The notes under the pieces were generated by a model. It had not been told where the DNA came from. It searched no databases and was given only the letters and a program-made list of their open reading frames with translations. Of a stretch of 64,000 nucleotides of DNA, positions 314 to 47,768 are shown piece after piece. Positions within the stretch are counted from its first letter, which is position 1; every line of letters starts with the position of its first letter. The translations under genes were made by a program, and so were the position numbers. The stretch comes from an uncultured Gammaproteobacteria bacterium (GTDB lineage: Bacteria > Patescibacteriota > Patescibacteriia > Patescibacteriales > UBA12465): NCBI GenBank assembly GCA_964648205.1, contig CAZYNT010000001.1:47765-111764 (forward strand), written 5' to 3'.

Positions 314-503
314 TTCAAAATATTTTTGTTAAGGTTAAAGAATATTGTTAAAGAATAATAAAAAAATAAGTATAATTGCTATATTCTTGTCAATGCACGG
401 GATGGAGGTGTTGCGCCCCCGCTTGAGGATTTGGAGTCCCCTGTACTACTGTTATACTAATCCCGCAATCCTCCGGCTTGGCCGGAGTATATGATTAAAA
501 AAA

Positions 504-33427: not shown

Positions 33428-33451
33428 TTGGTCCCTTCGTCTAACGGTTAG
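33428..33451 (+). repeat. Direct repeat copy 2 (start of the intact tRNA-Glu)
   Basis: Identical 24-mer. Confidence 0.85.
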
Positions 33452-33501
33452 GACGCCAGGTTCTCATCCTGGTAACAGGGGTTCGATTCCCCTAGGGACT
33501 A
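33430..33501 (+). tRNA. tRNA-Glu (anticodon CTC)
   Basis: GGTCCCT acceptor, D arm GTCTAACGGTTAGGAC, anticodon loop TTCTCAT, T arm AGGGGTTCGATTCCCCT. Closely resembles E. coli tRNA-Glu. Confidence 0.8.
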
Positions 33502-33507
33502 CTAACT

Positions 33508-33540
33508 AAAAACATCCAGTGAATACTGGATGTTTTTAGT
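33508..33540 (+). terminator. Intrinsic terminator after tRNA-Glu
   Basis: AAAAACATCCAGTGAATACTGGATGTTTTTAG: a 9-bp stem followed by a T-run. Confidence 0.75.
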
Positions 33541-33544
33541 TAAT

Positions 33545-33760
33545 AATTCGCAACTAGGGGAAGCGAACAGACGGCGAGCCTGCCTACCGGCAGGCAGGCG
33601 AGGCTCGAGTTCGAGTAGAGCGAGAGAGGATGAGCGACGATAAACGCGAGTTGGCGAGCGTTTAGCGGGTCCGTTAAGGGCAACGAGCGGCGCCGAATCA
33701 GGCGTCGTGAGGTGGAATCCACCTAGAGACTAGAGATAAAAATATCTCGTAAGGGTATTC
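33545..33760. other. GC-rich structured ~215-bp element of unknown function at the tRNA-proximal end of a low-GC island
   Basis: About 60% GC against an AT-rich background. Hairpins CCTGCCTACCGGCAGG (nested in CGAGCC...GGCTCG), GGTGGAATCCACC and GAGATAAAAATATCTC. No credible ORF; the 60-aa minus-strand ORF is rejected. Confidence 0.3.
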
Positions 33761-33766
33761 TTTTAA

Positions 33767-34420
33767 TTATTTCTCTAAAATTAATTCTCCGTTTTTAAGT
33801 GCTTGATCATGAGAGGGACAAGTTGGCCATGGGCGATCCAATACATCTTCAGAATCAAAAAGGAATATGAAACAATCACCAGGAGGAACTTTGCCGTAAT
33901 TATTTGTTAAAATATAATCCTTATCTTTCCAAATAATTCGTGAATAAATAGACCACGGATCAGTCCCAGTCTCAACTCGATGATGTATAACATGAAGACT
34001 AGCCTCTTTGCCATTGCACATATCCCCGGGATGAAACTCACGCACACCCTTCTCGGTTTGCAGATAAAGATTAGATTTATAGTCTGGCGCGTATTCTATA
34101 ATACTACTACCAATTGCCTCAAAAAATGAACTTAATAAAACATACTCATTATTTATAACAAAACCGTCGGCAATAACACTGCCTGATTTACTATGCGCGA
34201 ACAGACCGCCCCTTTTTGTTTTAAGAGCTTCTTCATCTACTTTTAAAAAAATCTCCTCACCACAAGCAAATATACGATAATCAACTCTTGATAAAAGTCT
34301 TTCCATTCCTTTGCTTTTCTCTTTATTTTTTAATACAAAAAATATACTTATGAAAATAATTAATACCGCCAAAAAGCATAAAATCCCAAATTTATAAATA
34401 TGGTTTTTTATTAATTTCAT
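33767..34420 (-). CDS. Hypothetical membrane-anchored protein (single N-terminal TM, extracytoplasmic domain); possible immunity-like partner of the upstream gene
   Basis: 217 aa with N-terminal hydrophobic helix FGILCFLAVLIIFISIFFVL. The start is 3 nt after the upstream gene's stop. Confidence 0.45.
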   Translation of the reverse strand: MKLIKNHIYKFGILCFLAVLIIFISIFFVLKNKEKSKGMERLLSRVDYRIFACGEEIFLKVDEEALKTKRGGLFAHSKSGSVIADGFVINNEYVLLSSFFEAIGSSIIEYAPDYKSNLYLQTEKGVREFHPGDMCNGKEASLHVIHHRVETGTDPWSIYSRIIWKDKDYILTNNYGKVPPGDCFIFLFDSEDVLDRPWPTCPSHDQALKNGELILEK

Positions 34421-34422
34421 AT

Positions 34423-35382
34423 TTAATCAATAACTTCAAGCTCGCCCACGCTTAGAAAATCTCCTTTGCGCGCTTTGATTAATTTATCATAGATCTCATT
34501 CCATTTTTCAATTTCAATTATTGTGATACAGCCAAGCGAAACTCTGCCTGTATGTAAATATCTTTCTCCTTCATGCCCGATTCTAAACCAACTCATCGCC
34601 CTCAGTGCCCTCTTCTCATAATTCCGTCCTTTAGGATGCGGATAATCAGGCAATTCAATGTCATACCAACCTTTTTCCCATGGCGATTCAGGATAATCTG
34701 TAACTTGATATTTTTTATTACCAATAATCAGTTTCTTTTGAGAGGTGGAATATTGCAGATGAATTAAAGACTCATGCTTTACGTCTATTAAAAGACGGGA
34801 ATTACCATTGTTTAGGCTGACAGAGGCTTTTTGATTTTTATATAAACCCTCTAACACCATAAAATATTCCCGCCCGCTTTCAATATATTCTGATTGTACT
34901 TTTAAAAAGGCGGGAAGAGAAACCGTCTCACCACCCGTTATCTTAACTTTAAGCCAGCCATTATCAACATCAGGGATATATCTTACCGTTTTCGTAACCA
35001 AAGCTTCAATCGTAACTTCAAAAAGAGCGGCGGACTTGCCCCACGTCTTGCCAAAACGATTTTCACGAAGTTCAATATTATAGGTGAAATTTTGCTGCTT
35101 AACGTTATCCGTATCAACTTTAATTATCTTTTCTATTTTTCCGATATCGTTAAATAATATATCTTTTTCTAAAACGATGATTTTTACTTTGGCAGAAAAT
35201 GTTTTCTGGTCAGAAGAAAAATCGCCTATCACTTGATTAAATTCGGCGGTTTTTCTATCCCGCATCCTTTTATCAGCGTGAAAAATTTTATCCAATAATT
35301 CTATATCAATATGGATGTCGTTGCCAATTGATTTACCTGTATATTTTATTTTTATAAGTTTGAATTGAATTTTTTTAAGCAT
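34423..35382 (-). CDS. Hypothetical protein with a C-terminal L,D-transpeptidase-like (YkuD/Tlde1-like) His...Cys motif
   Basis: No signal peptide. C-terminal FRIGHEGERYLHTGRVSLGCITI resembles the YkuD catalytic segment (compare IHGT...SHGCIRM) in both spacing and residues. Confidence 0.45.
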   Translation of the reverse strand: MLKKIQFKLIKIKYTGKSIGNDIHIDIELLDKIFHADKRMRDRKTAEFNQVIGDFSSDQKTFSAKVKIIVLEKDILFNDIGKIEKIIKVDTDNVKQQNFTYNIELRENRFGKTWGKSAALFEVTIEALVTKTVRYIPDVDNGWLKVKITGGETVSLPAFLKVQSEYIESGREYFMVLEGLYKNQKASVSLNNGNSRLLIDVKHESLIHLQYSTSQKKLIIGNKKYQVTDYPESPWEKGWYDIELPDYPHPKGRNYEKRALRAMSWFRIGHEGERYLHTGRVSLGCITIIEIEKWNEIYDKLIKARKGDFLSVGELEVID

Positions 35383-35392
35383 ACAGATTTTT

Positions 35393-35872
35393 TTAAATTT
35401 TTAATACATCTTGCTCATTTAATATCGACTTCAGCTCCTTGACTTTTATCAACAGAGTTTTAGCGTCTGCATGGGCTTGGTGTAATTCTGCTTCTGAAAT
35501 TCCGATAAAATCACCATATTCGATTCTATTTCTTTTCTTTCTCATTTGCTGAAATCTTTGAAACTCATTACCGAGTTCGCCATTAAGGAAGACGGCGGCG
35601 GCATTAATTACAATATAATGATGACCCTCTCCACTTGCTTTTACTCTATATCCGTTAATTAACAATATGGCTTCACAGCCTAATCTTATAGAATCGTAGA
35701 TATTATTGTACACAATGTCCTCGTCCCCGGTGCCTAATCCGGACAAGTTTTTATTTGCAAAATTATATAATCTATCAGCCTTCTCGATTTTTATTTCAAC
35801 CCCCTTTAAATTGGGTAAAAAAGGCTCAATGGAATTATTACTTAATAATGTTTGAATCTCTTGTAAAATCAT
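35393..35872 (-). CDS. HEPN-like helical protein (putative toxin partner of the upstream nucleotidyltransferase)
   Basis: 159 aa, predicted all-helical. Overlaps the upstream NTase gene by 35 nt. The canonical Rx4-6H motif is not clearly present (KRNRIEYG), so the assignment rests on the gene pairing. Confidence 0.4.
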   Translation of the reverse strand: MILQEIQTLLSNNSIEPFLPNLKGVEIKIEKADRLYNFANKNLSGLGTGDEDIVYNNIYDSIRLGCEAILLINGYRVKASGEGHHYIVINAAAVFLNGELGNEFQRFQQMRKKRNRIEYGDFIGISEAELHQAHADAKTLLIKVKELKSILNEQDVLKI

Positions 35873-36425
35873 ATGGATCCCCTTTTAATTTAATTATTGG
35901 TGATAAGAATATATTAGATATAAAATTATTTTTTTCTTTAATCTTTTTAATAATTTCCTGACTACTGTAAATATGATAATTTATTTCTCTGGCAATTTTG
36001 CCCTCTATAGAACTTACCATGATAGTAAGGGCCTCTTGATCGATGTTTCCAATTAACATTAAATCAATATCGCTATTATTATTTTCCGTTCCTCTGGCTA
36101 TTGATCCGAAAATAAAAGCGCATTCCACATTATCAAGTTTATCGATTAACTTTTTTAGTTCATTTTCTAAGCCGCTTGTTTTCGAAATAATGCTTTTTAT
36201 TTCTTCATAAAGTGGGTGTTCTTTATTTAATCTAAAAAAACGCATATTTCCGCGACGTTCATCTAATAAGATTTTATCATCCACCAAATTATCTAAATAT
36301 TTTTGATAATGACTCGGCTCTTTTTTTAGATTTTTAGCAATTTCTCTAAAATAATATTCTTTTTTTGAGTCTTCAAAAAAAAGCTTAAGGATTTCCCCTT
36401 CCCCGTTTTTTAAAAAATTTAGCAT
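35838..36425 (-). CDS. Winged-helix HTH plus minimal nucleotidyltransferase (MNT, Pol-beta superfamily) protein, putative antitoxin/regulator
   Basis: N-terminal HTH-like region (YYFREIAKNLKKEPSHYQKYLDNLVDDKIL) and NTase motif FGSIARGTENNNSDIDLMLIG. Confidence 0.7.
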   Translation of the reverse strand: MLNFLKNGEGEILKLFFEDSKKEYYFREIAKNLKKEPSHYQKYLDNLVDDKILLDERRGNMRFFRLNKEHPLYEEIKSIISKTSGLENELKKLIDKLDNVECAFIFGSIARGTENNNSDIDLMLIGNIDQEALTIMVSSIEGKIAREINYHIYSSQEIIKKIKEKNNFISNIFLSPIIKLKGDPYDFTRDSNIIK

Positions 36426-36473
36426 ATAGTATGTTTAATAATTTTTATTTCAATTATTCTTGATTATATTATA

Positions 36474-36512
36474 CATAATTTATGTACAATTGTACATACT
36501 TTATGTACATAA
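36474..36512. promoter_or_regulatory. Palindromic operator overlapping the promoter of the HTH-NTase operon
   Basis: Perfect 14-bp palindrome TGTACAATTGTACA flanked by further TATGTACA half-sites, about 50-90 nt upstream of the ATG. The minus strand has TATAAT adjacent. Confidence 0.55.
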
Positions 36513-36603
36513 GCTAATATTAGCCAACGATTACACACTTATTAAGAAAAATATATTATCTCAAAACTTTCCTCCACCTCTCAATTTCGCCCATATCCTA
36601 TAT

Positions 36604-38115
36604 TTATAACTCATACAAAAATATCATATAAGAGGTGCCTTCCAGGTGGCCTTTTTCTGTAAAGTTCTTCCGGAAGTCATTCTTTAAAGTCGCAGCAAAT
36701 GGATTATCTTCTGTAAAAACCAGCCAAACCCTCTTACTGCCAGATGATTTAATATTATTTATCAATACATCCGAGCTCGGAAATGTGTTGTTATTATTTT
36801 TAATAATCTTATTTACATCTTGGTAAAGTTGATGAGTAGCCATTTCTTCGGGGAATGACTTTTTTATAAAAAACTTAAGATTAATATTCATGCGACCTAT
36901 ATAATAATCAATCGTTGGCCTCGAAAGTCCGGTAAACACTAGCCAATCATTATCCTGGGCTATCGATAAAAAATTGGACACAACTGTCCGCTCATTAATT
37001 TTTTGGTTTTTGATGTTATTCTTTTCCCTAATTACCTCTGCATAACTAAAAATAATCAATAATAAAATTAAAGAGCAGACAATCCATTTATTTTTAAGAC
37101 GAGAAAACAATATGGCGAATAGAAGAATAAAAGCCGGCAAAACTACGGCCTCATAGCGCCCCGGCTCATAAAAATTTACAAAATGACCCACAATCCATGC
37201 CACCAACAATGGGATAAATAGGTAACCAAGCAACCATGATAAGTTGGAAATAATCTTATTATAATTAATTTTTTTTAACTTAAAATAGATTCTATCTTTT
37301 GTTTCTTCTAAGTAACCAAAAATAGCAAGAGCCGATATTAGACCAAATATTATATAAATTCCAGTAGCCCCGTACATAAAATAATGGAAAGTATCGAATA
37401 TTGTTTTAAATGATGTTAAAGAAATCCAGCTGCTTGCTCCATTTTCCCTATATTGCCACAAGATTACTATCCAGGGCGAACTAATAAATACGGCAGCAAT
37501 TTGGCAAAAGAGTATTTTAAAAGATTTTTTATAAAGCAGCCAGCTAATAAATTGGGATCCCAATAATAACAAGAACCAGGGATGAGAACAGACGCCTAAA
37601 ACAGTAAAAAACAAATACCAAATAACATTTTTATACCGAAAGTGCTTTAGTAAAATATAAAATTGAAAATACGAAAGAATGCTCAGTAGTATGACCAATG
37701 AATACTGCCTGGCTTGAATAGAATAGAAAATACTAAAATAATTTATTGCCAGTAAAAAGGCCGCCCATAGGCCGGTACGCACACCTCTAATTAATACTCC
37801 GAGTTTATAAATTGCTATAAGTGAAAGCAAGCTTAAAATTACAGATAAAGAACGGAGTCCGATCTCATTATTTCCAAATAAAACCGACCAAAATTTTAAT
37901 AAATAAAAGTAAGCGACATTGCTGCCAGAATTAACCAAATTGGACCACGAGTTAATCAAATTTGTATTAAGGGCATTGGCTACCCCAGCCTCATCTAGCC
38001 ACAATGGCCTTAAAGATAAATGATCTAATCGTAAAATACTGGCTAAGACAAAAATAGCTAAAAAAATTAAGACATTTCGATTCTTTTTTATTATCTTTCT
38101 TAAATTATTTACCAT
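36604..38115 (-). CDS. GT-C fold membrane glycosyltransferase (family 39/83-like, ArnT/PMT-type)
   Basis: 503 aa polytopic. N-terminal LRLDHLSLRPLWLDEAGVA matches the first-loop DE motif of PMT/ArnT-type transferases. Low GC. Confidence 0.55.
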   Translation of the reverse strand: MVNNLRKIIKKNRNVLIFLAIFVLASILRLDHLSLRPLWLDEAGVANALNTNLINSWSNLVNSGSNVAYFYLLKFWSVLFGNNEIGLRSLSVILSLLSLIAIYKLGVLIRGVRTGLWAAFLLAINYFSIFYSIQARQYSLVILLSILSYFQFYILLKHFRYKNVIWYLFFTVLGVCSHPWFLLLLGSQFISWLLYKKSFKILFCQIAAVFISSPWIVILWQYRENGASSWISLTSFKTIFDTFHYFMYGATGIYIIFGLISALAIFGYLEETKDRIYFKLKKINYNKIISNLSWLLGYLFIPLLVAWIVGHFVNFYEPGRYEAVVLPAFILLFAILFSRLKNKWIVCSLILLLIIFSYAEVIREKNNIKNQKINERTVVSNFLSIAQDNDWLVFTGLSRPTIDYYIGRMNINLKFFIKKSFPEEMATHQLYQDVNKIIKNNNNTFPSSDVLINNIKSSGSKRVWLVFTEDNPFAATLKNDFRKNFTEKGHLEGTSYMIFLYEL

Positions 38116-42635: not shown

Positions 42636-43427
42636 TTAGTATTTTTTAAAATATGGATGAAAAATTCTAAAACCATCTTTTTTGTCTAATTCGGATTTTA
42701 TAAAACTTTCTTTTATTTCTATTTCTCTAGCATTTAAAGGAGTTTCGCCCTTGTTCGCCCTTTTATTGAACCACCAAACACCAATATCGCGTTTATAGAT
42801 TGGTATTTTAAATATTTTTGCATATGTAGGTATTTTATATTCAAGCATTCCAATCTCCCTGTCTTCGACAGTTAACCATTTATCGAAAAAAATTCTTGGA
42901 AAGATTTGAAAAATAAATAAACTGCATAATAACCTATTTCTATAAGAATACTTTTCTTTTATATATTTTTTGAATTCAAGATAATTTTTTCTATGTTTTT
43001 TTCCTTTTTTTGTCCAATCCCATTTTTTTTCTATATACTCATCTAATATCCTTGTACCCGAAATAAACAATTCTCCTTTTTTCATCCTAGGAAATTGTTT
43101 TTTAATATTTCCCAATATTAAAGCGTCCCATTGAACTATAGCGACTCCATCCCAATTTTTTAAGTTTTGTCCCCTTTCTTTATACCAATCTAATATCATT
43201 AAATCCCCATGAATCCATTTATACTTACGTGGCTTGCTGCAAAGAGAGCTAACATGAAAATCATCCAAATAACTTTTTAATTTATTTTTAAAGCTACCAG
43301 CCTTTGCCTTATCTCCACCGTACAATCCAAAAATTTTGACATTCGGATTATGTTTTTTTATCAATTTAAGTCTATTCAAGCAAATTTCAGGGTCTTTGTA
43401 GAACCAAAACAAAATAGCTAACTTCAT
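42636..43427 (-). CDS. Hypothetical protein (very AT-rich gene, first of a low-GC cassette)
   Basis: 263 aa, Lys/Trp-rich. No recognised motif. Confidence 0.4.
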   Translation of the reverse strand: MKLAILFWFYKDPEICLNRLKLIKKHNPNVKIFGLYGGDKAKAGSFKNKLKSYLDDFHVSSLCSKPRKYKWIHGDLMILDWYKERGQNLKNWDGVAIVQWDALILGNIKKQFPRMKKGELFISGTRILDEYIEKKWDWTKKGKKHRKNYLEFKKYIKEKYSYRNRLLCSLFIFQIFPRIFFDKWLTVEDREIGMLEYKIPTYAKIFKIPIYKRDIGVWWFNKRANKGETPLNAREIEIKESFIKSELDKKDGFRIFHPYFKKY

Positions 43428-43432
43428 ATTGC

Positions 43433-43819
43433 TTAAAAACCGAAGTATTTTAAAACGGGTTTAATGTTTGGGGCCAAATCTTCTTTATCTAAATCTTGTA
43501 TATCTATCCAACGCCATTCTTTTATATCTTTACCTGGCATAATTTCTCCAATTCTTTTAGCCAGGAAATGAACCAAGATAACACTTAACCTTTCTTCTCC
43601 CTTTTCCGTATAGAAAAAATAGGGGTTATTATTTAGTATTTCTATATCTAGTCCCATCTCCTCCTTGACTTCTCTAATGGCAACTTCTTTTAAATTAGTT
43701 TCATCTTCTTCAACTCTTCCGCCACAAAATTTCCAAAATTGATCTTCACCATGTTTATTAAGTAAAACGTGATTATTTTCTACAATTACGGGACCGGATG
43801 CGATAATAATTTTAGACAT
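43433..43819 (-). CDS. NUDIX hydrolase
   Basis: Nudix box GGRVEEDETNLKEVAIREVKEEMGL. Confidence 0.8.
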   Translation of the reverse strand: MSKIIIASGPVIVENNHVLLNKHGEDQFWKFCGGRVEEDETNLKEVAIREVKEEMGLDIEILNNNPYFFYTEKGEERLSVILVHFLAKRIGEIMPGKDIKEWRWIDIQDLDKEDLAPNIKPVLKYFGF

Positions 43820-43898
43820 ATATTTTATAATTGCTATTTTACAATTATACCACGCCTTGCCGAAGCCATAAATTTCTTATTAAAAATAACTCGAAATC

Positions 43899-44732
43899 TT
43901 ATGGCTTTTCACTCTCAAATTTAATGTTTTCGTCTAATATTGTAACAATTTCATTATTCAAAATAGGAATGTCATATTGTTTGGTTTCAGGATTAAATTT
44001 TTTTCCGCTAACAGACATTTTAGAAATTATTTTACCCACAATTTGCGGATTTCTAAATTTCCCCTCATTTTTTGCTTTTATTGATCTTTCTCTTATTGAA
44101 TCAATCCCATAATTAATGGCCTCCTCATTCATGCGAGTATCAACATGACCAGGATTAACTAAAAAGACTTGAATGTTTTTATTTTCTTCTTTGCTAGAAA
44201 AATCTTTAAGCCAGTCCTCAACATTTTTTTTCGCTTGTCCGTAATGTTCATGCCCCTCTATAAATTTACTGGCCTGAGTAGAAGTAAGAAATATTATGCG
44301 TCCATTTGAAGAACGCAATAAATCAGAGGCCGATTCAACTAGATTTTTTTGAGCCTCATAATCAACTTTTAAGGTATAGCCTTTCGATTCTCTTATGCCA
44401 GTCACGGCGGCGTTTAGTATTAAAATATCCAAACCGCCTAATTTTTCAGAACCTTGTTTTATAAAATCTTCTATTTTATCGGTATTGCTTAAATCAAGTT
44501 GATATGCCTCAACTTTACTTGAATTTTTCATTTCGTCTAGTTTTTCTTGTGTACGGGCGCAAATAACGACATCATGATTTTGTCCAGACAATTCCAACGC
44601 TATGGCCCTACCAATTCCCTCGGTCCCACCAGTTAAAATTATTTTTTCTTTTTCTATCGCTGGCGATTGTATTTTTTGCTCAAAATTCATATTTATATAT
44701 CTCAAATATATTTTAAAATTATCAATCAACAA
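43899..44732 (-). CDS. Short-chain dehydrogenase/reductase (SDR)
   Basis: TGGTEGIGRAIA Rossmann motif, and NAAV and YxxxK elements. Confidence 0.8.
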   Translation of the reverse strand: MLIDNFKIYLRYINMNFEQKIQSPAIEKEKIILTGGTEGIGRAIALELSGQNHDVVICARTQEKLDEMKNSSKVEAYQLDLSNTDKIEDFIKQGSEKLGGLDILILNAAVTGIRESKGYTLKVDYEAQKNLVESASDLLRSSNGRIIFLTSTQASKFIEGHEHYGQAKKNVEDWLKDFSSKEENKNIQVFLVNPGHVDTRMNEEAINYGIDSIRERSIKAKNEGKFRNPQIVGKIISKMSVSGKKFNPETKQYDIPILNNEIVTILDENIKFESEKP

Positions 44733-44734
44733 AA

Positions 44735-45337
44735 TTATTTCTGCACGATTATTCTAGCCACTTCGTGCTTATGTGGATTCGGAAAACCAGGATGACCGGG
44801 GTCTAAAATAATATTTTCTAAATAATATAACACTTTATAGCCAGAAAAAAGATGCAATAATTCCTGCTCATCGAAATAACCGCTAAATTTATTACCTGAA
44901 GTAAAACTGGGGTCATCTTTGGTAAAAGCTTCGATGATTATATAACCGCCTTTTTGGATATTATCTTGCAGGCTATTTAATATTTTTAAAGTTTCATCTT
45001 TGCCTAAAAAATTTAAAACATTACGGCAGGCAATTACTTGGTATTTATCTTTTTCAATATTAAAATCTTTTATATCACCATAAATTAATTCTAAATTATC
45101 TAGTTTAAGCTCATCTTTTTTAGCTTTTAATTGATCAATGACCACGGATGAACTATCTATCGCCGTAACCGGAAAACCCTTTTCAGCTAAAAACAAAGAA
45201 TCGACTCCCTGGCCACAACCCAAATCCAATACCGCGCTACCCGGTAAAAAATTTTTCCAGATAAGGTTTAAAATTTGGCTGGGCTTAATTTCCTCACCAA
45301 CATTAAAGGTTGAATATATTTTATTATAATTTGGCAT
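44735..45337 (-). CDS. Class I SAM-dependent methyltransferase
   Basis: VLDLGCGQGVDSLFLAEKG motif I and an acidic motif II. Confidence 0.8.
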   Translation of the reverse strand: MPNYNKIYSTFNVGEEIKPSQILNLIWKNFLPGSAVLDLGCGQGVDSLFLAEKGFPVTAIDSSSVVIDQLKAKKDELKLDNLELIYGDIKDFNIEKDKYQVIACRNVLNFLGKDETLKILNSLQDNIQKGGYIIIEAFTKDDPSFTSGNKFSGYFDEQELLHLFSGYKVLYYLENIILDPGHPGFPNPHKHEVARIIVQK

Positions 45338-45390
45338 TTTATTGATAACTTTAATTTATTGTTTTTAAATATGTTTCAAATATCATTAAA

Positions 45391-45825
45391 TTAACAATTT
45401 TTAAACATAACTACAAAATCATCAGCCAAAGAATAGCCGCGCTTCTCATAAAAATCCAGCAAACGCTTATCTTTTTTAGTCCAAAGCATCGCCGATCTAA
45501 CACCTCGCGCCTTTAAATACTCCTGGGCATGCGCCATCAGCGCCGTGCCGACGCCATTATTTTGATTTGCGGGGTTGACTACTATCTCTTCCAAAATAGC
45601 TTGGGAGCCAACGCTCCAGGTCGATAATCTTAAAAATATAAAACCCAATATTTCGTTCCCTTCAACAGATACAAAACTATCATTCTTACAATTATTATAT
45701 TTTTCTAAAATATATTTATAAGCATTATCACCAACGAAATTTTCGTTGTAGGGCGGTTTACCATAAGCCGCCTGCAATAAATTGGCGCAAACCGACAAAT
45801 CTTCTTCTGTTATATTTCTAATCAT
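45391..45825 (-). CDS. GNAT family N-acetyltransferase
   Basis: Acetyl-CoA binding segment VVNPANQNNGVGTALM. Confidence 0.8.
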   Translation of the reverse strand: MIRNITEEDLSVCANLLQAAYGKPPYNENFVGDNAYKYILEKYNNCKNDSFVSVEGNEILGFIFLRLSTWSVGSQAILEEIVVNPANQNNGVGTALMAHAQEYLKARGVRSAMLWTKKDKRLLDFYEKRGYSLADDFVVMFKNC

Positions 45826-47728: not shown

Positions 47729-47768
47729 CCGCCCTTTAACCTTACGGTTTGGGGGCGGTTTTGTTATT
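47729..47768. terminator. Bidirectional intrinsic terminator
   Basis: ACCGCCC...GGGCGGT 7-bp stem with T-runs on both strands. Confidence 0.6.

Follow-up and report, generated by a model that had tools for sequence, protein, structure and literature searches.

A low-GC cassette of four genes, located next to a tRNA-Glu gene in a bacterium of the Patescibacteria (candidate phyla radiation, CPR), appears to combine two separable two-gene conflict modules in one operon. The cassette lies in a 64,000-nt stretch of DNA (hereafter, the window), namely positions 47,765 to 111,764 of contig CAZYNT010000001.1, which was deposited under the name of an uncultured Gammaproteobacteria bacterium; its host is a CPR bacterium, tiny and symbiotic, and close to Falkowbacteria to judge by the sources named for its nearest homologs. 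The genes, termed a to d in the order of their transcription, encode a winged helix-turn-helix (wHTH) nucleotidyltransferase (NTase), a HEPN-like protein, a predicted L,D-peptidase and a membrane-anchored protein. We put the probability that c and d constitute an effector/immunity pair at roughly 0.6, and from sequences and predicted structures we infer the enzymatic activity and toxicity of c, its export from the producing cell and its neutralisation by d. Specifically, c would be an L,D-peptidase of the cysteine type whose catalytic pair is His277 and Cys285. Outside the cytoplasm, in a neighbouring cell, a host or the wall of the producer itself, it would cut or exchange the terminal residue of stem peptides in peptidoglycan, and d, outward-facing, membrane-anchored and probably disulfide-bonded, would neutralise c at the wall of the producer. 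Besides the predicted fold of c, three observations make this the best-supported reading: the catalytic module of c is shuffled among proteins, c is followed by a partner gene that unrelated families can replace, and partners persist as orphans where c has decayed.

When we checked the open reading frames (ORFs) of the window, all four genes ran in one direction on the minus strand, at the same coordinates as in a first-pass annotation made from the sequence alone: gene a at 35838–36425 (195 aa, including GSIARGTENNNSDIDL), gene b at 35393–35872 (159 aa), gene c at 34423–35382 (319 aa, including FRIGHEGERYLHTGRVSLGCITI) and gene d at 33767–34420 (217 aa). The overlap between a and b measures 35 nt, a gap of 10 nt separates b from c, and the start of d follows the stop of c after 2 nt (not 3 nt, as originally noted). 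The earlier description of four co-directional, AT-rich genes beside tRNA-Glu was likewise confirmed by the GC profile (0.26–0.38 over 33.8–38.1 kb versus ~0.40–0.46 in most of the window) and by ARAGORN and Rfam, both of which place a tRNA-Glu(CTC) gene at 33430–33502 (plus strand), at the border of the cassette.

Gene c and its predicted catalytic module

Gene c is the founding member of a large, uncharacterised protein family, confined almost wholly to the CPR. Its close homologs form 218 clusters of ~320-aa proteins (50–100% identity), all of them annotated as hypothetical, devoid of Pfam domains and assigned to the CPR wherever a host is named. An exhaustive profile search returned 697 representative proteins matching c, and no published description of the family was found in the literature searched. 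Direct family searches with c and d (Pfam, NCBIfam, PADLOC, PHROGs) yielded nothing useful, and neither c nor its C-terminal module had a meaningful match in profile searches against Protein Data Bank (PDB) sequences.

We therefore turned to structure prediction. The model of full-length c (pLDDT 85) is nearly all beta. Foldseek matched its N-terminal ~135 residues (34978–35382, minus strand) to C2 domains, albeit at moderate scores (E ~1e-4, TM-score ~0.5), and we consider this C2-like beta-sandwich a candidate targeting or trafficking domain. Since the C2-like domain dominated the whole-chain search, in which the catalytic domain was missed, the C-terminal module (residues 136–319; 34426–34977, minus strand) was modelled separately. 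The AlphaFold2 model of this part, built with distant relatives, reached a pLDDT of 95.5 and a pTM of 0.90, and comprises a beta domain (residues 136–230) followed by what is predicted to be a divergent L,D-peptidase domain of the Tlde1/YkuD fold (residues 231–319). Its top 29 PDB matches in Foldseek were L,D-transpeptidases without exception (probability ~1.0; among them LdtMt2, LdtMt3, M. abscessus Ldt2 and DpaA), with no other fold below an E-value of 0.1. The comparison against YkuD and Tlde1 folds suggested in the first-pass annotation thus returned no unrelated fold.

Throughout the full-length c family, seven residues do not vary: H249, H277, G279, S282, G284, C285 and T287. In distant relatives, too, all of them are invariant except S282, which is kept in at least 90% of sequences. 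In the window, the codons of the three catalytic-domain residues H249, H277 and C285 occupy 34636–34638, 34552–34554 and 34528–34530 (minus strand), respectively. The family motif reads H277-x4-S282-x-G284-C285, with a His–Cys spacing of H-x7-C and an invariant hydrophobic residue after the cysteine. Its counterparts in Tlde1a are H121, S128, G130 and C131, with H129 as the second histidine of the (S/T)HGC motif (PMC9638812), and a short His–Cys spacing is typical of DUF2778 (bioRxiv 10.1101/2020.02.18.954545). Among 26 distant stand-alone relatives of c, 12 match the Pfam family Tlde1_dom (PF10908; best E-value 1.3e-06) and two match YkuD. The proposal that the C-terminus of c carries an L,D-transpeptidase-like His…Cys motif is hence backed by the predicted fold and by the invariant H277 and C285, but not by the histidine of the 'IGH' string originally pointed to: this residue, H270, is invariant among close c homologs only and is not kept in distant relatives.

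Partner families and shuffling of the c module

To our count, 74 species-representative genomes, almost all of them CPR, hold a c locus; the scan behind this number was pattern-limited and covered 185,579 species genomes. In nearly all 74 loci, wherever the sequence after c is available, the next ORF lies −26 to +9 nt from c, runs in the same direction and encodes a protein with a hydrophobic or transmembrane (TM) segment at its N-terminus. These partners belong to three unrelated membrane-anchored families: D1 (~175 aa, 35 loci), D2, which includes d (217 aa in the window; found in the window and in 15 of the 74 loci of the scan), and D3 (~247 aa, 12 loci), which has a weak PdaC-like match. 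Remote homology among the three was considered and rejected, as hhalign aligned the TM segment only, at a probability below 30%. The view of d as a single-TM protein encoded right after c was borne out, with the TM segment starting at residue 3, and four cysteines (C53, C135, C183 and C201) are invariant in d. Nor is d a housekeeping gene that happens to adjoin c, given that D2 members lie directly downstream of c in 15 of 74 loci and other anchored families do so in most of the others.

The c-partner layout is retained in a high-GC, non-CPR relative (L014). As for the taxonomic labels, many TPA_asm loci titled 'uncultured Gammaproteobacteria' hold clearly CPR-like, low-GC cassettes, which renders those labels doubtful. 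One further contig, labelled 'Deltaproteobacteria bacterium TL4' (JBBCAX010000043.1; GC 0.455), encodes a full-length c with 46% identity and a D1 partner; this could be a case of transfer, contamination or mislabelling.

Several c/partner pairs may occur in one genome, and a single metagenome-assembled genome holds both a D1 and a D3 pair (L039, L054). In another eight loci (L082–L089), c has decayed—to tips of 38–104 aa without a start codon, by a broken frame or by internal deletion—and the partner is intact in most of them. At L084 (4001–4459), for example, an in-frame deletion joins approximately residues 1–70 of the N-terminal module to the catalytic domain (228–319), with an intact D1 gene downstream. 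The idea that a toxin tip and its immunity gene recombine as a unit was not supported, since all three regions of c behave alike relative to the partner family.

The catalytic module of c is also found in other protein contexts. We counted architectures on the best 150 of the 697 c-matching representatives: 56 possess all three domains, and 62 have the C-module only, 24 of these with other extensions. Fusions of the C-module involve eCIS_core/DUF4157 (P0295, P0299, P0332), Peptidase_C70 (P0286) and Amidase_3 (P0298), and the gene for P0332 is situated inside a cluster for an extracellular contractile injection system (eCIS) with Pvc16, AAA ATPase, tube, spike and baseplate genes. Some stand-alone c-type modules are preceded by signal-peptide-like leaders. 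The N-terminal C2-like module, in turn, is fused to SH3 and SLT lytic transglycosylase domains in P0333 and P0357, representing a second wall-degrading enzyme that has this module and no signal peptide; P0333 (L090, 2070–3857) continues into a TM segment and an FG-GAP-like region. Judged from these sequences, the shuffling fits a delivered toxin domain that would act outside the cytoplasm of its producer.

Features that define polymorphic toxins—a C-module behind varied N-terminal domains, a partner gene directly downstream and orphan modules—are therefore present in the c family. The likeness to polymorphic toxins and to eCIS cargo toxins (DUF4157/eCIS_core) extends from the varied N-terminal trafficking domains and the downstream immunity-type gene to orphan tips with intact partners and several pairs per genome. 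However, the CPR proteins carry a C2-like N-terminal module without a link to a known secretion route, and their toxin module is far more conserved than the usual tips.

The NTase/HEPN pair, its predicted operator and the cassette borders

Genes a and b are, with high confidence, an NTase/HEPN module of the PDC-M05 type, adding a new member to a candidate type that was already known. Gene a matches the PADLOC model PDC-M05A over its full length (E 2.5e-46), the adjacent gene b, with its 35-nt overlap, matches PDC-M05B (E 1.9e-11), and gene order, overlap and domain content all agree with the published type, a pair of NTase and HEPN proteins with an ArsR-like HTH on M05A that is enriched in archaea (PMC12988326). 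One PDC-M05 representative, unrelated to a/b, shielded E. coli from at least one phage (bioRxiv 10.1101/2024.09.26.614923). Nothing structural sets a/b apart; they differ in coming from a bacterium (of the CPR), whereas the type is mainly archaeal, and in being co-transcribed with an unrelated, putative toxin/immunity pair.

The description of a as a wHTH plus minimal nucleotidyltransferase (MNT) stands, as its N-terminal region (residues 22–70) has a weak match to ArsR/SmtB-type HTH domains and the protein matches the Pfam families Polbeta (4.4e-10) and NTP_transf_2 (1.8e-07). The HEPN assignment of b holds at the level of the family: PF05168 (HEPN) is matched by 12 of 16 close relatives (best 1.9e-05), including P0431 (56% identical to b), and JGI labels members of the b family UPF0332. 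Yet b itself has no Pfam match at E ≤ 1, and a profile search with b against PDB sequences gave no meaningful match. Weighing further against a canonical HEPN toxin, the invariant motif of the b family, R114-N115-x3-Y119, has a tyrosine where the HEPN R-x4-6-H motif has its catalytic histidine, which leaves RNase activity of b uncertain. We hence refer to b as a divergent HEPN-domain protein of the PF05168/UPF0332 type.

Like the MntA-HepT type VII toxin-antitoxin system, a/b consist of a minimal NTase with a GS…DxD motif followed by an overlapping HEPN gene, and MntA antitoxins are the best PDB sequence matches of a (top hit 5yep, E 0.002). In contrast to that system, a has an additional wHTH domain and scores 28.2 bits against the NCBIfam MntA equivalog, for which the cut-off is 60, and b, with its tyrosine in place of the catalytic histidine, does not match HepT (PF01934) but belongs to the PF05168/UPF0332 branch.

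Upstream of a, a promoter scan detected TGTACA-17 nt-TATAAT (36496–36468, minus strand; 10 of 12 positions matching), with the −10 box at 36468–36473 and the −35 box at 36491–36496. Within the window there is a single copy of the palindrome TGTACAATTGTACA, at 36483–36496 (0.06 occurrences expected by chance), and from the promoter spacing its left half is the −35 hexamer; a third TGTACA, at 36504–36509, lies beyond it. The palindrome is intact upstream of TATAAT in eight of ten related four-gene cassettes—L016 and L030 each have one altered half-site—whereas the flanks drift. The palindrome described over the operon promoter, with an extra half-site beside it, was confirmed in the sequence. 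Such conservation amounts to a phylogenetic footprint that is consistent with autoregulation by the wHTH of a, which most likely binds the TGTACA-AT-TGTACA palindrome over the −35 box and would thus control the whole operon.

Whether the four genes form one conflict system or two had been left undecided in the first-pass annotation; our data argue for two separable modules that have repeatedly become linked. Genes a/b lie directly upstream of c in nine of the 74 loci, all from one clade, and 64 of the 74 lack an adjacent NTase/HEPN pair. Together with the frequent occurrence of PDC-M05 elsewhere without c/d, this speaks for separability. Further cases of linkage are a CPR locus (L065) with an MntA-type NTase (Polbeta 3e-19), HepT (1e-22), c and a partner in this order, and L014, in which an NTase gene (7.7e-21) precedes a translational fusion of HepT to c and then a partner. 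The c of L065 groups with the CPR clade and is ~30% identical to the fusion clade, and the two HepT sequences share 23–28% identity. Between b and the HepT domain fused to c there is no sequence similarity, implying different HEPN families. Recruitment of NTase/HEPN pairs to c has thus occurred at least three times independently, and one of these events gave a HepT-c fusion that is hard to explain by chance. As a rough inference, assuming a 0.5% chance per gene of an upstream NTase/HEPN pair, three events in ~60 lineages would have a probability of ~0.004. The coupling could serve to stabilise the cassette, supply a second toxin with its own antidote, or provide regulation. Loci of the clade that has a/b are 77–90% identical to the window in a, 70–90% in b, 63–81% in c and 47–79% in d, and ranks that are discordant between loci suggest recombination inside the cassette.

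The border of the cassette next to tRNA-Glu (33503–33735) is made up of an 18-bp perfect hairpin at 33503–33542, directly after the tRNA gene and probably a bidirectional terminator for the tRNA and the converging operon, and a non-coding element of ~190 nt at 33543–33735. The element is GC-rich (~58%) and strongly structured (fold z-score −7), matches no Rfam family, and is kept at the equivalent site in L022 (5637–5809; 73% over 190 nt) and also in L012 (7650–7709). In L022 and L025, perfect direct repeats of GTAGTCCCTAGGGGAAT, the 3′ end of tRNA-Glu, flank it on both sides; in the window, a single degenerate copy (33717–33733) ends the element. Located between d and tRNA-Glu, which adjoin each other in the window and in L022, L024, L025, L027 and L028, the element resembles an att-type scar, or else a small unknown RNA.

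A second repeat, which we term M1 (~75 nt), has its core at 36563–36588 (minus strand) in the window. It is found ~164 nt upstream of a in eight cassettes, including that of the window, and 126–183 nt downstream of d in four loci. L012 alone holds four copies in one orientation (4128, 4786, 7799 and 9911) that separate gene blocks, and further positions include 1884, 2773 and 5727 in L020 and 2812 and 5756 in L023, besides other loci. M1 always follows a terminator hairpin, starts with GTAGTC and keeps the same orientation around the four-gene cassette and other gene blocks. In one frame it encodes a conserved peptide tail (…SEISQNFDGIIGEIERWAEIL followed by a stop codon), and no intact gene in the loci examined ends in this tail; M1 could represent the duplicated end of a gene or serve as a site of recombination. 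As far as the sequence informs us, repeats and tRNA adjacency fit a cassette that would recombine at a tRNA hotspot, and no recombinase was seen at the cassette loci.

As for its surroundings, the low-GC block includes a fifth gene at 36604–38115 (minus strand) for a 503-aa, multi-TM membrane glycosyltransferase (PMT_2-like, Pfam), so that the island comprises five genes over ~4.3 kb. Another block of low GC (~0.32) extends from 42636 to 45825, near a tRNA-Lys gene (46948), and contains NUDIX, short-chain dehydrogenase, methyltransferase and GNAT-acetyltransferase-like genes, as judged solely from reading their translations; akin accessory genes also neighbour the cassette in L012. Finally, Rfam detects a sixth tRNA at 396–466 (minus strand; 47 bits) that is not in the ARAGORN list.

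Competing explanations and meaning for CPR biology

Initially, c/d had been likened to Tlde1/Tldi1 (Tae5/Tai5; DUF2778, PF10908), the effector/immunity pairs of proteobacterial type VI secretion systems (T6SS). The two share an L,D-transpeptidase-type fold (predicted in the case of c), the His…S-x-G-C positions of the catalytic motif with their short His–Cys spacing, an effector without a signal peptide, a neighbouring gene for a protein that is extracytoplasmic (by prediction in the case of d), and the use of the module as the C-terminal tip of larger polymorphic toxins. They differ in that c has two extra N-terminal beta domains and resides in CPR hosts, in which no T6SS genes were seen. Moreover, neither d nor the other partners are homologous to Tldi1 (DUF2195), with d being TM-anchored where Tldi1 is secreted via a signal peptide, and the c partner is encoded downstream, Tldi1 upstream. 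In addition, c itself scores below the PF10908 threshold and is no formal member of that family.

This shortfall is one of several observations that weigh against the effector/immunity reading. Full-length c has no Tlde1_dom match at E ≤ 1, and when its catalytic domain was searched alone, Tlde1_dom was the sole family returned, over the His…SxGC stretch, at E 0.21 and 12.4 bits versus a gathering threshold of 30.1; the second histidine of the (S/T)HGC motif is leucine or alanine in the c family. Gene d matches no Pfam family and no PDB sequence, and has no recognisable fold. For a toxin, c is unusually conserved (50–80% identity across CPR classes), and its loci often lie amid housekeeping genes. 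At L021 and L031, a c of the d-associated clade, in all three of its regions, is paired with a D1 partner; partner family does not track c sequence there, which would be odd for strict lock-and-key immunity. Lastly, c lacks a hydrophobic N-terminus—in agreement with the original annotation—and no full-length homolog has a signal peptide, nor did we find T6SS, Rhs or PAAR genes within 4–8 kb of the ~90 c loci examined. With neither a signal peptide nor a secretion system known or seen nearby, c has no evident route to peptidoglycan.

Some of these points would suit a non-toxic pair for CPR wall maintenance, in which c remodels the cell's own peptidoglycan as an L,D-carboxypeptidase or transpeptidase and the partner serves as scaffold, activator or localisation factor. 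Strong conservation of c, its frequent location amid housekeeping genes (enolase, polA and tRNA nucleotidyltransferase, for instance), and a partner family that does not co-vary with c would all be expected, and YkuD-fold enzymes are usually housekeeping. Indeed, the housekeeping L,D-transpeptidases and carboxypeptidases of this fold (LdtMt2, LdtMt3, DpaA/LdtF, Csd6) provide the best structural matches of c, and LdtMt2 has a beta (Ig-like) domain ahead of its catalytic domain, as in the C-module of c. Unlike these enzymes, however, c has no Pfam YkuD match, a shorter His–Cys spacing, neither signal peptide nor lipobox, and a distribution that is mobile, modular and toxin-like. Maintenance also sits poorly with the patchy appearance of c (74 matches in the pattern-limited scan), with genomes holding several pairs, each with a different partner family, with the decay of c next to intact partners, with a catalytic module attached to eCIS_core, Peptidase_C70 and Amidase_3—one of these fusions within an injection-system cluster—and with a low-GC, tRNA-adjacent cassette whose position varies among genomes. 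We consider this explanation unlikely.

Quite unlikely, in our view, is that all four genes make up one abortive-infection or stress system, in which the NTase/HEPN pair would sense or regulate, c would damage the producer's wall and d would control c. In the window the genes share one operator-controlled promoter with gaps of merely 10 and 2 nt; NTase/HEPN pairs stand directly upstream of c in three independent lineages, with two HEPN families and one HepT-c fusion; and PDC-M05 is a defence candidate (PMC12988326). Such integration is difficult to reconcile with the 64 of 74 c loci that have no neighbouring NTase/HEPN pair and with the wide, chiefly archaeal occurrence of PDC-M05 in the absence of c/d (PMC12988326). 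Moreover, the existence of three unrelated extracytoplasmic partners suits immunity better than control, and a toxin module that occurs as eCIS cargo and behind signal peptides would be aimed at other cells. If c were an endolysin and d a holin- or spanin-like protein, the pair would be a lysis cassette of a phage or prophage. This could explain a wall-active fold without a signal peptide that is followed by a small membrane protein, as well as the tRNA adjacency and att-like repeats. Viral searches, however, essentially exclude this possibility: there was no viral structural match (best E 0.23) and no PHROG match over the catalytic part, and 2.9 million viral contigs gave two matches only, at 38% identity, both of them stand-alone C-modules. 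In addition, no phage genes were present in any locus examined, and d and the other partners have large, cysteine-containing globular ectodomains that are unlike holins.

Returning to the effector/immunity reading, what is new here is a CPR-wide, divergent branch of Tlde1/YkuD toxins with a new N-terminal module, three interchangeable families of anchored partners and the recurrent recruitment of NTase/HEPN pairs. More speculatively, the cassette might be a composite, four-component weapon or feeding tool of CPR bacteria. Its C2-like module would specify signal-peptide-independent export, c would attack the peptidoglycan of the bacterium on which the episymbiont lives, the partners would act as three interchangeable shields, and the NTase/HEPN pair would be functionally coupled to them, for instance by regulating them or by adding another warhead that brings its own antidote. 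We regard this picture as possible, but improbable in its entirety.

CPR bacteria account for a large share of bacterial diversity, and their cultured members live attached to other bacteria. CPR bacteria lack the classical machinery for delivering toxins, and, to our knowledge, next to nothing is known about the proteins that they deploy against their hosts or competitors. Conserved, widespread and easily recognised, the c family offers a concrete entry point to a candidate peptidoglycan-targeting toxin of the CPR with three alternative immunity families, and would extend the Tlde1/YkuD toxin superfamily past T6SS-bearing Proteobacteria. Its N-terminal module may mark an unknown export route, and the repeated, independent recruitment of NTase/HEPN pairs beside c—including a fusion—provides a clue to the role of these very abundant modules.

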